A stretch of 57,196 nt of DNA from a bacterium. Its GTDB lineage: Bacteria > Planctomycetota > Planctomycetia > Pirellulales > UBA1268. The stretch covers positions 1 to 57,196 of the forward strand of contig JAPOJV010000003.1 of assembly GCA_029978085.1 (NCBI GenBank). The letters are read 5' to 3'. This document shows positions 6,044 to 49,755 of the stretch, piece by piece. How positions within the stretch are numbered: the stretch's first letter is position 1; the number at the start of each line of letters is the position of its first letter. The notes beneath the pieces were generated by a model. That model had not been told where the DNA came from and ran no database searches. It saw only the letters and a list, made by a program, of their open reading frames with translations. The position numbers were made by a program, and so were the translations under genes.

Positions 6044-7815
6044 TGCCCTCGCTCCGTCACTGCAGCCGTTTCGCCAACGCCGTCGCGGGCGCAGCGGCAC
6101 TCGTTCTGGGTGTTTCCCGCCTACCTGTCAGGGCCGAGGTCGAGCCGGCTGTGCTGCAGGCCGAGGCCGCGCGGGTCGAGGTGATCCGGGCCGCATCGCA
6201 GTGCGCCGTCTCGATCTTCGCCGGTGATGCCGGCGGCGGCTCCGGCGTGCTCGTCAGCCCCGATGGCTATGCACTCACCAACTTTCACGTCGTCGAGCCG
6301 GCCGGTCCGGCGATGCGGTGCGGCCTGAACGACGGCCGCCTGTACGACGCGGTGCTCGTGGGCCTCGACCCGACCGGTGACGTCGCCCTGGTGCGGCTGC
6401 TCGGACGCGACGACTTTCCGCATGCCACGCCGGCCGATAGCGACCGCGTGCAGCCGGGCGACTTCTGCTTCGCGGCCGGCAATCCGTTTCTGTTGGCCAC
6501 CGACCTCCAGCCCTCGATCAGCGTCGGCATCGTCTCGGGCGTGCACCGCTACCAGTTTCCGGCCGGCACGATCCTCGAGTATGCCGACTGCCTCCAGGTG
6601 GATGCCGCGATCAACCCGGGCAACTCCGGCGGCGGGCTGTTCGACGAGGCCGGCCGCCTCATCGGCGTCAACGGCCGGGCCTCGTTCGAGAAGCGGGGCC
6701 GGGTGAACGTCGGCGTGGGCTACGCGATCTCGATGAACCAGGTGCGGAACTTCTTCGGCCTGCTCAAGGGGGGCCGGCTGGTCGATCATGCCACGCTCGG
6801 CGCGACCGTGTCATCGAGTGCCGACGGCCGCGTGCTCGTGTCGGACATCCTGCAGTCGTCCGATGCCTGGCGACGCGGACTGCGGTACGACGACGAGATC
6901 GTGGCCCTCGCGGGCCGCCCCATCCGCACGGTCAACGCCTTCAAGAACGTGCTCGGCACGCTGCCGGCCGGCTGGCGGGTCCCGCTCGCCTACCGGCGGG
7001 CCGGCCGGCGGCATGAGATCGTCGTGCGACTGGCGGCCGTGCCCTCGGCCGCCGCGCTCGCGGCCCTTGTCAGCGGTGAGCCGGAGCCGCCCCCTCGCGG
7101 TCCGAAAGATGACGCGCCACGCGTGCCTGCCGACCGCCGCGCCCCCCCCGATGCCGCGCGGCTGCCGGAGTCGGTCCGCGGGCTCTACGATCCTCGCCCC
7201 GGGTTCGTGAACTTCCACTTCAACACACTGGAGCGTGACCGCGTGGCCGCCGCCATCGCGAAGAGCCGCCCGGCCACGATGCCTGGGGCATGGGAGTTCG
7301 CCGGAGCCCGGGCCGAAGGGGGCCGGTTCCAACTCCGGCTCGCCGACGACGACGCGGTGATCGACCTCCCCACGGGCACGTCGCGGATCGATCCGGCCGG
7401 CGATCTCGCGGCGGATGCCTCGCCACCGGGAAGCGGAGGCCTGCTCGCGGCGCTCGCCATCTGGAGACAGCTGGTGCGATCGGGACCGACCGCCGTCGGC
7501 GGCACGACCTACTGGGGTACGGCGCCGCGGGATCCGCAGGCGTTCACGGCTGGCTTTGCCGCGGAACTCGTCGACGTGCTGGAGGTGGCCGTCTCGGGTA
7601 TGACGGCCGAGGTCGCCGTCGATGCCGCCGGCGTCGTCACGCAGGTGGAACTCTGGCAGGACGCCGACTCCGATTCGTGCCTCGTGCGATTCGGACGGCC
7701 GCACCCCGACGACCCGCGCGGCCTGCCGACGCGGTTCGACGTGAGCCGCGGCGACGAGGTCTTCGGCGCGTTCATCGTCGAGCCCGCCCCCCCGGCCCCG
7801 GGGGCACAGCCATGA
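6040..7815 (+). CDS. S1C (HtrA/DegP-like) serine protease with PDZ domain, intact triad
   Basis: LTNFHVV (His), GDVAL (Asp) and INPGNSGG (Ser); PDZ-like SDAWRRGLRYDDEIV. Confidence 0.88.
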   Translation: MMPSLRHCSRFANAVAGAAALVLGVSRLPVRAEVEPAVLQAEAARVEVIRAASQCAVSIFAGDAGGGSGVLVSPDGYALTNFHVVEPAGPAMRCGLNDGRLYDAVLVGLDPTGDVALVRLLGRDDFPHATPADSDRVQPGDFCFAAGNPFLLATDLQPSISVGIVSGVHRYQFPAGTILEYADCLQVDAAINPGNSGGGLFDEAGRLIGVNGRASFEKRGRVNVGVGYAISMNQVRNFFGLLKGGRLVDHATLGATVSSSADGRVLVSDILQSSDAWRRGLRYDDEIVALAGRPIRTVNAFKNVLGTLPAGWRVPLAYRRAGRRHEIVVRLAAVPSAAALAALVSGEPEPPPRGPKDDAPRVPADRRAPPDAARLPESVRGLYDPRPGFVNFHFNTLERDRVAAAIAKSRPATMPGAWEFAGARAEGGRFQLRLADDDAVIDLPTGTSRIDPAGDLAADASPPGSGGLLAALAIWRQLVRSGPTAVGGTTYWGTAPRDPQAFTAGFAAELVDVLEVAVSGMTAEVAVDAAGVVTQVELWQDADSDSCLVRFGRPHPDDPRGLPTRFDVSRGDEVFGAFIVEPAPPAPGAQP

Positions 7816-34731: not shown

Positions 34732-35073
34732 ATGGCCACAGCGACCACGCCCATCTGGGCACCGACACCCGAGAAAATGCAGGCCGCCGTCGAGCGGCTC
34801 GTGGCTGTCGCGCGGCCGACGAAGATCATCCTTTTCGGGTCACAGGCCCGCGGCGATGCCGATGACCGCAGCGACGTCGATCTCCTCGTGATCAAACCGC
34901 ACGTGACGGACCGTTTTGAGGAGATGGTTCGCCTCCACCGCTCCTTGAGGGGCCTGCTGCTGCCGGTCGATCTGCTCGTGGTGAGCGAGCAGGAGTTTGA
35001 GGACCGAGTCAACCAGCCCGGGTCGGTTGAGCGGGCGGCGGGACGGGAAGGTCGCGTGCTTTATGGCAGCTGA
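34732..35073 (+). CDS. Minimal nucleotidyltransferase (MNT) antitoxin
   Basis: LFGSQARGDADDRSDVDLLV (GS-x10-DxD). Confidence 0.88.
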   Translation: MATATTPIWAPTPEKMQAAVERLVAVARPTKIILFGSQARGDADDRSDVDLLVIKPHVTDRFEEMVRLHRSLRGLLLPVDLLVVSEQEFEDRVNQPGSVERAAGREGRVLYGS

Positions 35074-35443
35074 CGACCCGGAAGTGTTGATACGTAAGGC
35101 GAAGCAGGATGAACTCGTGTTGGAGCGGCTTCTGGGCGACCAGGATGTCGATGACGACACGCTTGGATTTCACGCCCAGCAGGCTGCCGAAAAATTACTG
35201 AAAGCGGCGATGGCAATCCGGGGCTTGGATTACCCCCGCACGCACGACTTGGGCGCATTAATCGACATGCTTGCCAAAGGCGGCATGACACTGCCGGAGG
35301 ACTTGGTCGATATCGACCTGCTCACGCCGTTCGGGACGATTTTTCGTTACGACGAGGTTGTGGAACGGGCGGGTCGAGATCGCCAACAATGGCTCGGCTG
35401 GATCCGATCGCTGCGTTCCCTCGTCACGGCAATGAAACGCTGA
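35063..35443 (+). CDS. HEPN-domain protein
   Basis: FHAQQAAEKLLKA, PRTHDL, RY; overlaps the MNT gene end. Confidence 0.88.
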   Translation: MAADDPEVLIRKAKQDELVLERLLGDQDVDDDTLGFHAQQAAEKLLKAAMAIRGLDYPRTHDLGALIDMLAKGGMTLPEDLVDIDLLTPFGTIFRYDEVVERAGRDRQQWLGWIRSLRSLVTAMKR

Positions 35444-35468
35444 CGATCCCTGCGCGTTCGGACAACGG

Positions 35469-35677
35469 TTGCGAACCACTACGCCGTGAGGGGGTGCCCG
35501 TGCCCCAGGAGCCGGCGTATGCCGCCGAGCGCAGGCAGGATGCCGGAGCGAAGGCGGCATCCGAGCGAGCGAAGGACAGGATGTCCGAAGCGAGCGTCCG
35601 GCGACGGGGCATGGGCAGCCCCGAACCCACGCCACAGGAGGTCGACCCACCGAGGAATAGACGGGCCTGTCCCCTAC
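35469..35677 (+). repeat. ~180-bp multibranched palindromic element, copy 1
   Basis: Core 35469-35648 is ~90% identical by manual alignment to the reverse complement of 48066-48246; nested stems; distal CCCCTAC end. Confidence 0.85.
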
Positions 35678-35774
35678 GTCCGATAATGTCTCTTATGTCC
35701 GTTTCGGGCTCCCCTGCTTTCGCCGCTGTTTTTCAGGGCCATACGCGACTCGGCGTGCCCTGCTCCTCGACGCG

Positions 35775-36668
35775 TCAGCGAATCGGAAGCGGGCTCTGGG
35801 CACCGACGGGAAACGGCTGCGGCGGGGCCTGCGGCGCGACGGACTGATACCGCGGACCGGTCGGTGCGAAGCCCGGTGCCGCGGCGGGCGCGGCGCCCTG
35901 AGCGGGCGCGGTGAATCCGCTTGCCGCAGGTCGTGGCGGCGGCGCGAAACCGGGTGTCGGCTGCGCTGGTGCCGGCGCGTTCCAGCCGGCCGGCATCGGC
36001 GCACCGCCGAATGCCGTTCCGCCGCCCGCCTGCTGCCCCCCCTGCCCGGCCGGCCCGCCTCCTGTCCAGGCGGCCGCCGATGTCACCCCTTCCCAGATGG
36101 CGGCGAGCGCCGACGGCTGGCCGGCAACCGGCGACTGCGTGGCATCACCACCGTTCCGGAGCGTGTCCTCGAACTGCTTCACGAACGGATTGACGGCCTC
36201 AGCGACCTCGCGAGGGAGGATCTCGTCGGCCCGGCTCATCACCTCGGCCACGATGCGTCCGCTGTGGCTGCCCACGATCTGCGGCCGGTAGGCGGGAGCC
36301 ATGGTGACGGCGAAAAACGTGATCACGATGCACAGCAGCGCCCCCTTGGCGATGCCCAGGAGCAGGCCGAGCTGGTGATCGAAGGCCGACAGGTGAACCG
36401 CATCGATGGCCCCGGACACCACACGAAAGAGGAGCCAGACGACGAGCGACGTGCCCACATACAGGGCGAGCATCGCGATCAGCCGGTTCCACGGGGCGGG
36501 CTGCCCGATGAAGGGTGCGAGCTGTCCCGCGAATCGCATGGCGACAAACGTGCTGGCCGCGATGCCCGCGATCCAGGCGATCTGCCAGACGATTCCTTTG
36601 AAATAGCCGAGCACGGCCGCGGCAGCCAGGATGCCCAGCATCATCAAGTCATAGCCTTCGACCGCCAT
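35775..36668 (-). CDS. CvpA (colicin V production) family membrane protein
   Basis: D......LGYFKG...Q, LSAFDHQLGLLLGIAKG; Pro/Ala-rich tail. Confidence 0.85.
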   Translation of the reverse strand: MAVEGYDLMMLGILAAAAVLGYFKGIVWQIAWIAGIAASTFVAMRFAGQLAPFIGQPAPWNRLIAMLALYVGTSLVVWLLFRVVSGAIDAVHLSAFDHQLGLLLGIAKGALLCIVITFFAVTMAPAYRPQIVGSHSGRIVAEVMSRADEILPREVAEAVNPFVKQFEDTLRNGGDATQSPVAGQPSALAAIWEGVTSAAAWTGGGPAGQGGQQAGGGTAFGGAPMPAGWNAPAPAQPTPGFAPPPRPAASGFTAPAQGAAPAAAPGFAPTGPRYQSVAPQAPPQPFPVGAQSPLPIR

Positions 36669-37051
36669 CGCATATGGTCCGAGGGTGATGAAAAGCGCCG
36701 TGTCGGGGCGGAAGTCTAGAAGGGTGCGCCCGAAATCCGAAGCCCAAAAGACGGAACAGACGTCCAATCTTACGCAGAAGCACGCGGCCGCAACGCCGAC
36801 GCAGCCGACACAAGCCACCTCGCCTTCCGCAAGCCCCCAAACACCCCAGGCGTCGCGTATTCCCATCAATTTGGCGGCGGTGGGGAAGTGCAGGGGATAG
36901 CGGACGGTCCGCTGACGGCCGCCCGCAGGTTTGTCGATAGATACCGCGAGGAACCGCGCACGGGGGCCGAAGGCTCCCGGTGCGTCGTGCCTCCGGCGTG
37001 GCTGCAATCTTGCATAGCCACCTGAAGCGGTGTTCAAGGGGGATCGTCGCA

Positions 37052-47350: not shown

Positions 47351-48049
47351 ATGCCTGGCCGCACCGTCGCCCGTACCGTCACTGACGTTGCCAAGACGCT
47401 CGACCACGCGGTGCTCAAGCCCGAGTTCACGCGGGCCGACCTGGCCCGGCATGCGGCGATGTGCGTGGAGCGGGGTGTCGGCTGCCTGTGCGTGCGGTCC
47501 AGCGACGTGGCCGAAGCCGTGCGGCTCCTCGCGGGCAGCCCGGTCGTGGTGGCGAGCGTGATCGGCTTCCCGCACGGCGCCTGCCGGCCCGAGGTGAAGG
47601 CCCTGGAGGCCCGGCTGGCGATCGCCGAGGGCGGCCGCGAACTCGACATGGTGATGAACATCGGCCTCTTTCGCTCGGGTGACGAGCCAGCCGTCGAGGC
47701 CGACATTGCGGCGGTGGTGGCCGAGGCCCGACCGCACGGCGTGCTCGTGAAGGTGATCCTCGAGACCTGCTATCTCACGCCCGCCGAGATTGCCGCGGCC
47801 TGCCGGATCGCGGAGCGGGCCAGGGCCGATTTCGTGAAGACCTCGACGGGCTTCGGCATGAGTGCCTCGGGCCCGACCGGTGCCACGCCGGCGGCCGTAC
47901 GGCTCATGCTCGACACCGTCGGCGGCCGGCTGCAGGTGAAGGCCTCGGGGGGCATCCGCACCTGGGACGACGCGGTCATGTATCTCGACATGGGCTGCAC
48001 ACGACTCGGCGTCGGCGACGCCGCCGCCATCCTGGCCGGCGCCCCGTAG
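47351..48049 (+). CDS. deoC: Deoxyribose-phosphate aldolase
   Basis: DHAVLKP, VIGFPHG, ELDMVMN, KVILET, FVKTSTGF, KASGGIR. Confidence 0.95.
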   Translation: MPGRTVARTVTDVAKTLDHAVLKPEFTRADLARHAAMCVERGVGCLCVRSSDVAEAVRLLAGSPVVVASVIGFPHGACRPEVKALEARLAIAEGGRELDMVMNIGLFRSGDEPAVEADIAAVVAEARPHGVLVKVILETCYLTPAEIAAACRIAERARADFVKTSTGFGMSASGPTGATPAAVRLMLDTVGGRLQVKASGGIRTWDDAVMYLDMGCTRLGVGDAAAILAGAP

Positions 48050-48246
48050 GGGTTCCCAGCCGCGCGGGTCGACCTCCTATGGCGTGAGTTCGGGGGTGCC
48101 CACGCCCCGTCGCCGGACGCTCGCTGCGGGCATCCATGCCCTCCGCTCGCTCGCATGCCGCCTTCGCTTCGCCATCCTGGCTGCGCTCGGCGGCATACGC
48201 CGGCTCCCGGGGCATGGGCACCCCCTCACGGCGTTTTGGTTCGCAA
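48046..48246 (-). repeat. ~180-bp multibranched palindromic element, copy 2 (inverted)
   Basis: Reverse-complement match to 35469-35648; its GTAG end overlaps the deoC TAG stop. Confidence 0.85.
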
Positions 48247-48330
48247 ACGGGGGCGTGGGCTGCGGCTCCGTCGTTCGGCCCGCTTCTTGCGACCGTCTAC
48301 AATGCTGCCACGCTTGGAGACCTCCGCGAT

Positions 48331-49755
48331 ATGACTCATCCCCGACTGCCGAAGACGCTGGCCGAACTGCGGGCGAGTGGCTGGACGAGCCGCTCAGTAA
48401 AGGACGAGGTGCGGGAGAACTTCCTTCGGCTGCTGCGCGACGGCGGCGAGCTGTTTCCCGGCATCGTGGGCTACGACGACACCGTGATCCCGGAGATCAA
48501 CATCGCCCTGCTCGCCGGCCACGACATGCTCTTCCTCGGTGAGAAGGGGCAGGCGAAGAGCCGGCTCATGCGGCTGCTCGTGCGGTTTCTCGACGACCAG
48601 CTCCCCTACCTCGACGATCCCGCGATCCCGCTCCACGACGATCCCTACGCACCGATCACCCGGGCCGGCCGCCGGCTCGTGGCCGACCGTGCGGCCGAGG
48701 AGGTGCCGATCGCCTGGTGGCCGCGCGACGAGCGGTATGCCGAGCGGCTGGCGCCGGGCACGAAGTTCGCCGACATCATCGGCGAGATCGACCCCGCCAA
48801 GCTGGCCGGCGGCACGAGCATGGCGAGCGAGGAGGCCCTCCATCTCGGGCTGATCCCCCGGATGCACCGCGGCATCTTCGCGATGAACGAGCTGCCCGAG
48901 CTCGATGAGCTTGTCCAGGTCGGGATGTTCAACATCCTCGAGGAGCGGGACGTGCAGATCCGGGGCTATCCCGTGAAGTTCGATATCGACGTGATGCTGC
49001 TCTTCTCGGCCAACCCCTCGACCTACAACCGCTCCGGCAAGGTGATCCCGCAGCTCAAGGATCGGATCGGCACCGTCATCCACACCCACTACCCACGAGA
49101 TCGCGACCTCGGCATCCGGATGGTGGAGCAGGAGGCGGGCATCGATCTCGGGGGCGACTGGCCGGTTGTCGTGCCCTGGTTCATGAAACAGGTGGCGGAG
49201 CAGATCACGATCGCCGCCCGGAAGAGCAAATACATCGACCAGCAATCGGGCGTGAGCGCCCGGTTCTCGATCGCCAACTACGAGACGATGGTGGCGAGCG
49301 CCCGGCAGCGGGGCGTGCGACTCGGCGAGCGGCCGGCCGTACCGCGGATCAGCGACCTCGGCCACCTCTATGCGTCGAGCCTCGGCAAGCTCGAGCTCGA
49401 CCTCATGGGGAGCCACCAGATGACGGAGCGGCAGGTGCTCGACGCCGTCATCGCCGAGGCGATCGCCACGGTGTTCGAGGAGTATGTCGAGGCCCACGGA
49501 CTCGACGAGATCGCGAAGGTGTTCGCCAAGGGCGTGAAGATCGAGGTGGGCGACATGCTGCCGAGCGCGGCCTATGAGCGAGTCGTCGAGGACGTGCCCG
49601 CCGTGTGGGAGAAGGCCTTCGAGGTCAACGCGTCACAGGACCCGGCCGTGCGGGCGAGCTGCATCGAGTTCGTGCTCGCGGGGCTGTATGCGACGGAGCG
49701 GATCTCCCGGCTCCAGTCGCATGGCCGCACGCTCTACGACACCGGTGGGTTGTGA
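48331..49755 (+). CDS. Magnesium-chelatase-like AAA+ ATPase
   Basis: Walker A GEKGQAKS, Walker [22 protein letters not shown]. Confidence 0.8.

Follow-up and report, generated by a model that had tools for sequence, protein, structure and literature searches.

To our knowledge, nearly all studies of small structured repeats such as REP, ERIC and Correia sequences have concerned Proteobacteria and a few pathogens. Integron attC sites (e.g., the VCR repeats of Vibrio) are imperfect palindromes of about 60 to 140 nucleotides (nt) of which one DNA strand is read as a fold, and some hosts harbor many copies of them in one-directional cassette arrays. For elements of the IS200/IS605 type, an orientation bias to one replication strand is expected. 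REPs are defined in PMC3733652 by a GTAG (or CGTC) tetranucleotide beside a stem-loop of 6 to 13 bp. REPIN populations, as portrayed in bioRxiv 10.1101/2021.07.10.451892, duplicate slowly, persist vertically over long times and keep a master sequence that is stable across species. ERIC sequences (or IRU; 127 bp) form long stem-loop transcripts and are listed in PMC2229807 with short terminal inverted repeats, TA ends and target duplication. For RNAs of the CsrB type, the account in PMC7652899 gives the repeat CAGGA(U/A/C)G and the SELEX consensus RUACARGGAUGU, with the GGA located in a short hairpin loop.

Here, we analyzed a window of 57,196 nt, which is contig C151 of a 3.31-Mb planctomycete assembly of 263 contigs (genome G000). 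The initial annotation had reported two look-alike copies of a folded element in inverted orientation, and both were found as placed: copy A at 35465-35680 on the forward strand and copy B at 48066-48249 on the reverse strand. By BLAST, the two copies are 90.2% identical over 184 columns (about 18 differences; E value of 1e-66), in agreement with the roughly 17 differences in 181 positions counted before. Both proposed compensatory changes, GGCA-GGA-TGCC versus GCCA-GGA-TGGC and GGACA-GGA-TGTCC versus GGGCA-TGGA-TGCCC, are present in the comparison of A and B. The proposed outer stem exists in both copies and comprises 17 bp, and the distal GTAGGGG end is present in A and B as CCCCTACG, which reads GTAGGGG on the opposite strand. 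A BLAST search of G000 with copy A yielded 161 pieces in 150 places, many of them at contig ends, which is far beyond two copies and beyond chance.

An alignment of 107 near-complete copies revealed a very well conserved core with much weaker conservation of the flanks. Between genera, the flanks differ and what is common extends just from GTGA (or GCGA) to GAAC; therefore, the unit corresponds to positions 35486-35626 in copy A and 48088-48229 in copy B. Thus, the repeat initially described with a span of about 180 bp is real, but its true unit is narrower and does not include the 3' tail carrying the GTAG end, which forms a module of its own. A covariance model of the core (R1; 141 positions, 42 pairs) was derived from 45 copies of 12 species of the genus and produced 134 matches in G000, the best copy scoring about 169 bits. 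Cores are scattered over the genome in both orientations at a spacing of about one per 25 kb. The parts of both copies and their neighboring genes in the window are as follows.

35486..35626, forward strand: core of copy A (GTGA, 17-bp stem, three-way junction, GAAC), 157.2 bits with R1
35490..35506, forward strand: 5' arm of the outer stem of copy A, pairing with 35606-35622 according to pair counts in the alignments
35606..35622, forward strand: 3' arm of the outer stem of copy A, pairing with 35490-35506
35534..35544, forward strand: hairpin 1 of copy A, GGCA-GGA-TGCC, with the GGA loop at 35538-35540
35574..35586, forward strand: hairpin 2 of copy A, GGACA-GGA-TGTCC, with the GGA loop at 35579-35581
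35627..35678, forward strand: shortened 3' tail of copy A, with the linker CACAGGAGGTCGACCC, then GGAATAG and further sequence, and the end CCCCTACG; the tail hairpin is missing
48088..48229, reverse strand: core of copy B, 149.7 bits with R1
48046..48087, reverse strand: shortened tail of copy B with the end CCCCTACGG, as read from the sequence and the listing of tails
34997..35443, forward strand: HEPN-domain gene (Pfam HEPN, 59.8 bits), its stop codon 42 nt before core A
35775..37037, reverse strand: CvpA-like gene, convergent on copy A (Pfam Colicin_V, 77.8 bits)
47351..48049, forward strand: DeoC-family aldolase gene (Pfam DeoC, 39 bits), its stop codon 38 nt before the near end of core B
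48331..49755, forward strand: AAA+/Mg-chelatase-like gene (assigned by Pfam) downstream of copy B, to which copy B is antisense

The core fold consists, in this order, of the 17-bp outer stem, an internal loop (often AGGA), a 5-bp stem and a three-way junction with two arms, the first being an 8-bp stem capped by hairpin 1 and the second a broken stem capped by hairpin 2. In an alignment of 38 copies, 98.1% of the pair cells are standard and 12 of 47 pairs carry changes on both sides, a number reached by none of 500 shuffles (5.3 ± 1.4 two-sided pairs) and not by slid partners (2 to 4). Similarly, 99.0% of the pair cells are standard among 45 copies of 12 species, with two-sided changes at 11 of 42 pairs (0 of 500 shuffles), so that covariation exceeded the shuffles in both alignments. 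Some pairs appear as two or three Watson-Crick types among the 107 copies, one of them as CG in 49, AT in 28 and GC in 25 copies. The second stem pair of hairpin 1 toggles between CG (23) and GC (21) in the 45-copy alignment, and in hairpin 2 one stem pair is GC 25, AU 18 and CG 1 times and the next is AU 33, GC 6 and CG 2 times. More distant copies (e.g., L116) have entire helices rewritten with the pairing preserved. A predicted pairing between the 5' flank and the tail is unsupported, since only 17 to 74 of 107 cells are Watson-Crick at the respective pairs.

The pattern of mismatches distinguishes the two strands. Over 101 cores, paired columns contain 108 G·T and 11 A·C mismatches, a tally that omits one pair at a stem end adjoining the AGGA loop, which is frequently A·C (24 A·C versus 11 G·T). 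The ratio of G·T to A·C is unchanged by the direction of the neighboring genes (22:2, 30:3, 36:3 and 10:0). In RNA folding, the strand named above reached a minimum free energy of -90.8 kcal/mol (z score of -8.5) for copy A and -103.9 kcal/mol (z score of -9.7) for copy B, compared to -75.2 (z score of -5.1) and -87.4 (z score of -7.2) for the complements. DNA folding parameters gave the same order, with the named strand of A and B folding better than its complement. The fold is selected on one strand, and a single-stranded intermediate or ligand would account for this. We rejected the idea that recombination between the arms commonly flips the interior: the wobbles of the arms would then no longer be tied to the interior, but when scored against the interior G·T still outnumbers A·C by 10:1.

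Conservation is also pronounced in the loops. The initial annotation had recognized the CsrA-type motif CAGGAUG in them, and CAGGATG is indeed found in both loops of 97 of the 101 cores. The GGATG of hairpin 1 is without variation in 45 of 45 aligned copies, and its GGA is kept in all 19 copies read from other species and genera while the stem covaries. Both loops match the CsrB repeat, and hairpin 2 matches the ACA..GGAUGU part of the SELEX consensus; CsrB/RsmZ-type RNAs, as described in PMC7652899, likewise expose CAGGAUG in loops of short hairpins with several GGA per molecule. AGGA is present in the internal loop of many copies. Furthermore, CsrA was found in 61 of 61 genomes of the family, mostly with three to five paralogues. 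The core RNA could thus be read as a predicted CsrA docking module of two high-affinity hairpins about 40 nt apart plus a single-stranded AGGA, the approximately 130 copies acting as transcript tags or as a dispersed sponge. The constraint on resident copies described below would fit this reading, as would a contig from an RNA library (metatranscriptome) at 35301-35527 that runs from the HEPN gene into core A, given without strand and possibly derived from DNA carry-over. Beyond 35527, RNA contigs at the locus of copy A do not cover the element, and three other RNA runs cover the flanking genes only; nothing is concluded from this gap, because the contigs show neither strand nor ends.

We nevertheless consider a role as CsrA docking module unlikely. 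Among the 19 copies from other species and genera, the GGA of hairpin 2 is present in 16 and replaced in three, and no upstream promoter is conserved. CsrA is equally present in the nine genomes of the family that are devoid of the core, although its phylogenetic profile is uninformative because all 61 genomes have it. CsrB/RsmZ-type RNAs are single- or few-copy genes with their own promoter and terminator, whereas the core has about 130 copies in random orientation. As a discrete small RNA gene, the core would also be unusual in its surroundings: the flanks are unconserved between genera, no conserved promoter was found, and there is no T run after the stem.

The distribution of the core is limited to one family. 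By BLAST, all 24 other genomes of the genus contained it, and a set of 16 genomes, each from a different other family, gave no hit. With R1, for which at most 53 candidates per genome were scored, 51 of the 60 other family genomes had the core, covering 11 of 12 genera including that of the window, with scores reaching about 150 to 160 bits in other genera among the candidates scored. By the same model, it is missing in two well-assembled genomes of the family (G058 with 5 contigs and G047 with 20 contigs) and in all of 131 genomes from 29 other families of the order. All genomes compared are metagenome bins, and those of the RAYT survey described below are 69 to 98% complete. In Rfam, neither the whole window at gathering scores nor positions 35400-35760 at E values up to 10 gave a match. 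An exact 22-nt pattern of the core had no match in IMG/VR viral contigs, nor did blastn detect the core in plasmid and phage records, and we found no description of the 141-nt core in the literature. The initial annotation, too, knew of no description in planctomycetes; this differs for the GTAG end, as GTAG REPs were previously reported in Planctomycetes (PMC3733652).

Analysis of the sequences downstream of the core identified the origin of this GTAG end. The full tail lies on the same strand and consists of the linker CACAGGAGGTCGACCC leading to GGAATAG, a hairpin, and then a CCGCACAC-GGA-GTGTGCGG hairpin with ACTACGG. This ACTACGG-ended hairpin is a GTAG-tagged REP on the opposite strand. 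As judged by reading the sequences, a full tail ending in the REP follows about 45 of 112 cores; the shortened tails of A and B retain the CTACG end only. Many cores are also preceded by other hairpin-plus-CTAC repeats. A regular-expression search located 95 tail REP hairpins in the genome, 61 of them away from any core, and most of these core-free hairpins form inverted doublets about 120 nt apart. Head-to-head doublets of the same hairpin lie on both sides of a RAYT-like open reading frame on contig C219, which encodes 231 amino acids with an HVH motif and scores 62.4 bits with NCBIfam NF047646, "REP-associated tyrosine transposase" (cutoff of 80), and 21.4 bits with Pfam Y1_Tnp (cutoff of 23). 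A different repeat, of 35 nt, borders another RAYT-like gene, located on contig C99. As candidate partners, larger HUH-like open reading frames were observed on contigs C172 and C222, neither of which carries a core.

The GTAG foot, initially taken as a mark of HUH/RAYT substrates, is a real trace of a REP/RAYT system, because the tail REP hairpin flanks the RAYT-like gene; this part of the claim stands for the REP-hairpin remnant, but the core itself is not linked to RAYT. No core was found within 2.5 kb of 22 RAYT-like genes (2 from G000 and 20 from other genomes; 102,523 bases in total), so the check for a linked TnpA-REP/RAYT gene that had been proposed initially gave no link to the core. 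RAYT-like matches (NF047646, E values up to 1e-5) occur in 28 of the 60 other genomes of the family, namely, in 26 of 51 with the core and in 2 of 9 without it. Conversely, 25 of 51 core-bearing genomes have no RAYT-like match, among them 13 genomes with at least 30 core matches. A RAYT linkage of the core was rejected on these two results. REPIN systems decay after loss of the RAYT, whereas the cores in these 13 genomes are intact.

The core resembles REPs in several respects: REP/REPIN-RAYT systems, as outlined in PMC3733652 and bioRxiv 10.1101/2021.07.10.451892, share with the core high-copy extragenic hairpins, G·T pairs in stems, inverted doublets, a slow rate of duplication, long persistence by vertical descent and a master sequence that changes little from species to species. 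The notion that the core is an ordinary REP or REPIN moved by the RAYT of its genome, as the GTAG end hints, draws on the REP-ended tails, on the hairpin doublets at the RAYT-like gene, on the preceding CTAC repeats and on fixed inverted pairs of cores. It is very improbable and for the core largely refuted, given the results on linkage and the lineage specificity of the tail: other species and genera fuse other sequences to the core, and most tail REP hairpins stand apart from cores. In addition, REPs measure 20 to 40 nt and carry GTAG, whereas the core is three to four times longer, at 141 nt, with GTGA and GAAC ends, a 17-bp stem and no GTAG beside it.

To place the element relative to genes, a simple codon-usage caller was used, which predicted 2,122 genes covering 79% of the genome and whose calls agreed with Pfam for the four genes checked, those beside copies A and B in the window. 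The 128 places of at least 100 nt comprise 35 between convergent genes, 13 between divergent genes, 30 antisense and 24 sense to co-directional genes, 19 at contig edges and 7 within called open reading frames, 5 of which are within 125 nt of a probably over-extended start. Convergent spacers are in excess, with 35 of 102 classifiable copies compared to 342 of 1,859 background spacers (the others being 333 divergent and 1,184 co-directional). Sides of the element face 3' ends of genes in 116 cases and 5' ends in 74, and 49 of the 116 are 20 to 60 nt from the stop codon. Copy B illustrates this placement, as it is located between the DeoC stop codon and a TACAAT box that precedes the start codon of the AAA+/Mg-chelatase-like gene in G000 and nine other species. 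Within 250 nt of this gene, a core is present in 11 of 21 assessable species of the genus (8 antisense, 3 sense), a count that excludes three further loci that are too short.

These positions raise the question of a host transcript-end device, i.e., a hairpin acting in both orientations as terminator, insulator or 3'-end protector that spread because it is useful. Apart from the spacing to stop codons, the convergent excess and the recurrence of the core in either orientation behind DeoC, such a device would agree with the strong folding of both strands (z scores of -5 to -9.7) and with effects on mRNA stability reported for REP and ERIC in PMC2229807. However, a plain hairpin leaves unexplained the invariant junction and loop sequences, the conservation across genera and a one-strand bias in which G·T outnumbers A·C by 10:1 irrespective of gene direction; there is no T run after the stem, and 13 of the 102 classifiable copies are between divergent genes. 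We regard this explanation as quite unlikely.

Orientation of the core is random relative to neighboring genes and GC skew. Besides the 24 sense and 30 antisense copies between co-directional genes, sense and antisense copies number 28 and 33 when the nearest stop codon within 80 nt is taken as the reference. Deviations at conserved columns average 1.50 in antisense and 1.05 in sense copies (P = 0.40), and GGATG occurs 1.92 and 2.00 times per core, respectively. Antisense copies are thus as conserved as sense copies and show the same G·T excess, which together with the random orientation further argues against CsrA docking in transcripts. A more general version, in which the core would throughout the family dock a conserved protein that binds nucleic acids, with CsrA as the obvious candidate, about 130 selected copies as a sponge or regulon tag, and one strand read regardless of neighboring transcription, also appears improbable to us. 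With respect to local GC skew, no bias was observed (55:62 and 43:50) in this fragmented genome; the skew itself is autocorrelated, adjacent 10-kb windows correlating with r = 0.62. In this, the core differs from single-stranded DNA (ssDNA) elements of the IS200/IS605 type (PATE-like), with their expected bias to one replication strand. It also differs from attC sites, which it may resemble as an imperfect palindrome of which one strand is read as a fold, in that cores are scattered in both orientations and not in one-directional arrays. Core pairs less than 300 nt apart are head-to-head in 5 of 5 cases, and overall copies occur solo, in head-to-head pairs or fused to lineage-specific modules, e.g., GTAG REPs.

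Comparison of species revealed turnover of the element, with gains, losses and replacements of copies. The syntenic spacer of copy A is coreless in four more distant species in which both flanks were found (G024, G041, G022 and G009). In the closest species, G013, whose flanks are about 92% identical to those of G000, a contig begins right after the site of the element. We sampled 20 element loci of G013, which were the best scorers, and this sample is biased toward intact copies for that reason. A counterpart region exists in G000 for 19 of the 20; in 16 of these the element is clearly present at that position, and for a 17th the position falls on contig ends of G000. One counterpart has a single arm left after an internal deletion running from the GGGGC word of one arm to that of the other, and another has unrelated sequence instead of the element. 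Starting from G000, a block of some 300 nt (5' extension, core, tail and REPs) was found to be missing in G013; in G000, this block replaces 22 nt that include the stop codon of a gene. At a second polymorphic site, G013 has only the remnant GCCCCGAACCCAC plus two other GTAG hairpins, and at a third the core is in opposite orientation and about 100 nt away. No target-site duplication was seen at these three G000/G013 sites, a small sample without a clean empty site.

With these data, the core can be compared with other non-coding repeats. Correia/NEMIS elements and other MITEs, as characterized in PMC2229807, are non-autonomous, shorter than 200 bp, intergenic and polymorphic between species, with inverted ends forming a long stem. 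The core shares these traits and has terminal inverted repeats in the form of its 17-bp arms (35490-35506 and 35606-35622), in which 99% of the cells are paired; it differs in that neither TA ends nor a target duplication were seen and that the arm search of the 263-contig genome described below revealed no parent insertion sequence sharing its ends. An imperfectly palindromic sequence of similar size, intergenic location, use of either orientation, transcripts folding into a long stem-loop, lack of coding capacity, and occurrence across genera of one family in tens to hundreds of copies are features of ERIC in PMC2229807 and of the core. The two are probably unrelated in sequence, and the core has a three-way junction, two conserved GGA loops and the 17-bp stem, again without TA ends or target duplication seen. 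Among the ERIC, REPIN and MITE kinds, ERIC comes nearest in size, conservation across genera and use of both orientations.

We next consider the age of the copies. Among 101 cores, no pair is 1 nt or less apart, and only 3 of 5,050 pairs differ by 2 nt or less; the nearest copy lies at a median distance of 7 nt, compared to 13.75 nt with columns shuffled independently. In the absence of near-identical cores, the copies are old, and constant re-insertion of young copies was rejected on the same grounds, i.e., that no pair is within 1 nt and that the median nearest distance is 7 nt. Recent activity is accordingly not visible, as no identical or near-identical copies exist among the 101 cores.

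Orthologues were compared using 12 of the 16 G000/G013 pairs. At 95 columns that are at least 95% conserved among paralogues, 10 of 1,140 positions differ between the orthologous pairs (0.9%), while third codon positions of the flanking genes differ at 16.4% between G000 and G013. At 37 variable columns, 122 of 434 positions differ (28%). Random paralogues differ by 1.7% at the conserved and by 40% at the variable columns. Changes on both sides of a pair, with pairing in both orthologues, were found in 22 cases. A core matches its orthologue best in only 2 of the 12 pairs, and the GC or CG state of the toggling pair in hairpin 1 differs in 7 of 12 orthologous pairs, which is near random. Differences at variable columns amount to 19.4% in the outer 30 nt and 34.7% in the center. 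This scrambling of variable columns may be due to gene conversion, replacement, template switching at palindromes or mis-threading of repeats in metagenome assembly. The near-invariance of the outer conserved columns, which are anchored by unique flanks, is the firmer result. In total, about 72% of the columns barely change between paralogues, orthologues and genera. That resident copies vary so little is more in keeping with a host function than with a purely selfish element.

Taken together, we lean, with some reservation, toward the interpretation that the core is a family-specific, non-coding dispersed repeat of the mobile-element type, a planctomycete counterpart of ERIC and REPIN, with slow copying of a folded strand and a conserved partner protein. 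The mobile type is suggested by the number of copies, their sharply bounded unit, a spread that is confined to the family and includes losses, the turnover, the doublets, the mosaics with REPs and the placement after stop codons. A non-autonomous ssDNA mobile element had been one of the initial readings; it is borne out in that the element is dispersed, folded, non-coding and selected on one strand, but not in that the core is without RAYT linkage. A conserved partner reading the fold of one strand is postulated because old copies are constrained, and the junction and loops are conserved across genera without a linked transposase. In such a scenario, the element would multiply slowly by copying of the folded strand, as ssDNA or RNA, and a protein conserved in the family would recognize this strand. 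Recognition by the partner, or use of it by the host, would keep resident copies intact, and as a by-product each copy would place a very stable hairpin at transcript ends. Searches of the 263-contig genome for a parent element with the arms of the core gave 74 solo-arm matches with up to 3 mismatches, nearly all of which looked chance-like, and no longer element, and no mobilizing enzyme was found for the core.

For work on these genomes, the repeat has practical consequences: it breaks assemblies, with many contigs ending inside the element, and the covariance model R1 can be used for its annotation. The core is a large, cleanly bounded structured repeat in an uncultured planctomycete family. 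It combines a three-way junction, two loops of the CsrA type, conservation across genera and near-invariant old copies without a linked transposase. The conserved loops and junction could serve as bait for the partner protein. This combination provides a concrete case for asking whether such repeats are replicators, host tools or both.

Both copies of the repeat in the window lie beside protein-coding genes. Between copy B and the AAA+ gene downstream of it, we found a conserved TACAAT box followed by GGAG (48290-48330), which nine other species carry at the corresponding position. The box lies about 25 to 45 nt 5' of the AAA+ start codon and is probably the -10 element of this gene. Two reading frames are found upstream of copy A:

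34732-35073, small ORF ahead of, and overlapping, the HEPN-domain gene
34997-35443, HEPN-domain gene

These may form a HEPN/MNT-type pair, with the small ORF as the putative MNT partner.

CsrA is present in all 61 genomes of the family, mostly as three to five paralogues (range, 1 to 7). In the window's own genome (G000), a core, i.e., the 141-nt folded intergenic repeat, lies about 570 nt downstream of one CsrA paralogue (C246:8276-8446). This proximity is not beyond chance, given four CsrA genes in the genome and a core density of one per 25 kb.

Analysis of the sequences adjoining the cores of G000 revealed the following elements:

C24:23195 and C262:1584 (examples), GTAG-tagged hairpin families upstream of cores, with stems CCCGTTGC/GCAACGGG and CCGGTCAC/GTGACCGG
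C230, directly 3' of the core at 6631-6785, tandem array of roughly 15-nt units (GTTTGGTCTGGTTCC and variants)
C88:13470-13794, C2:10069-10364 and C102:22868-23274, head-to-head core doublets

The additional GTAG-tagged hairpins stand directly 5' of many cores on the same strand, and the resulting mosaics of hairpins and cores resemble BIMEs. The doublets come from a subfamily with the 5' flank GGAGGCT(C/T) instead of CCGTGA, and the spacers between their paired cores are palindromic in part.

Furthermore, RAYT-like and HUH-like genes were identified in G000:

C219:1800-2948, RAYT-like gene, 231 amino acids, HVH motif
C99:3626-4435, second RAYT-like gene (NF047646, 76 bits)
C172:3011-4120, larger HUH-like protein ORF, complete, about 350 amino acids
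C222:2-781, larger HUH-like protein ORF, truncated at the contig start

The ORFs on C172 and C222 are closely alike and contain NHLHVL, FWEARY and YIDLNP motifs; several other family genomes gave weak hits to ORFs of this kind. On either side of the RAYT-like gene on C219, a GTAG-type REP hairpin occurs in head-to-head doublets. A regular-expression search yielded 95 matches to this hairpin across G000; many of those distant from cores form inverted doublets spaced about 120 nt apart, an arrangement that resembles REPINs. The RAYT-like gene on C99 is flanked by a 35-nt inverted repeat distinct from the C219 hairpin. Pairs of this repeat are also present on at least 20 further contigs, suggesting a second REP system.
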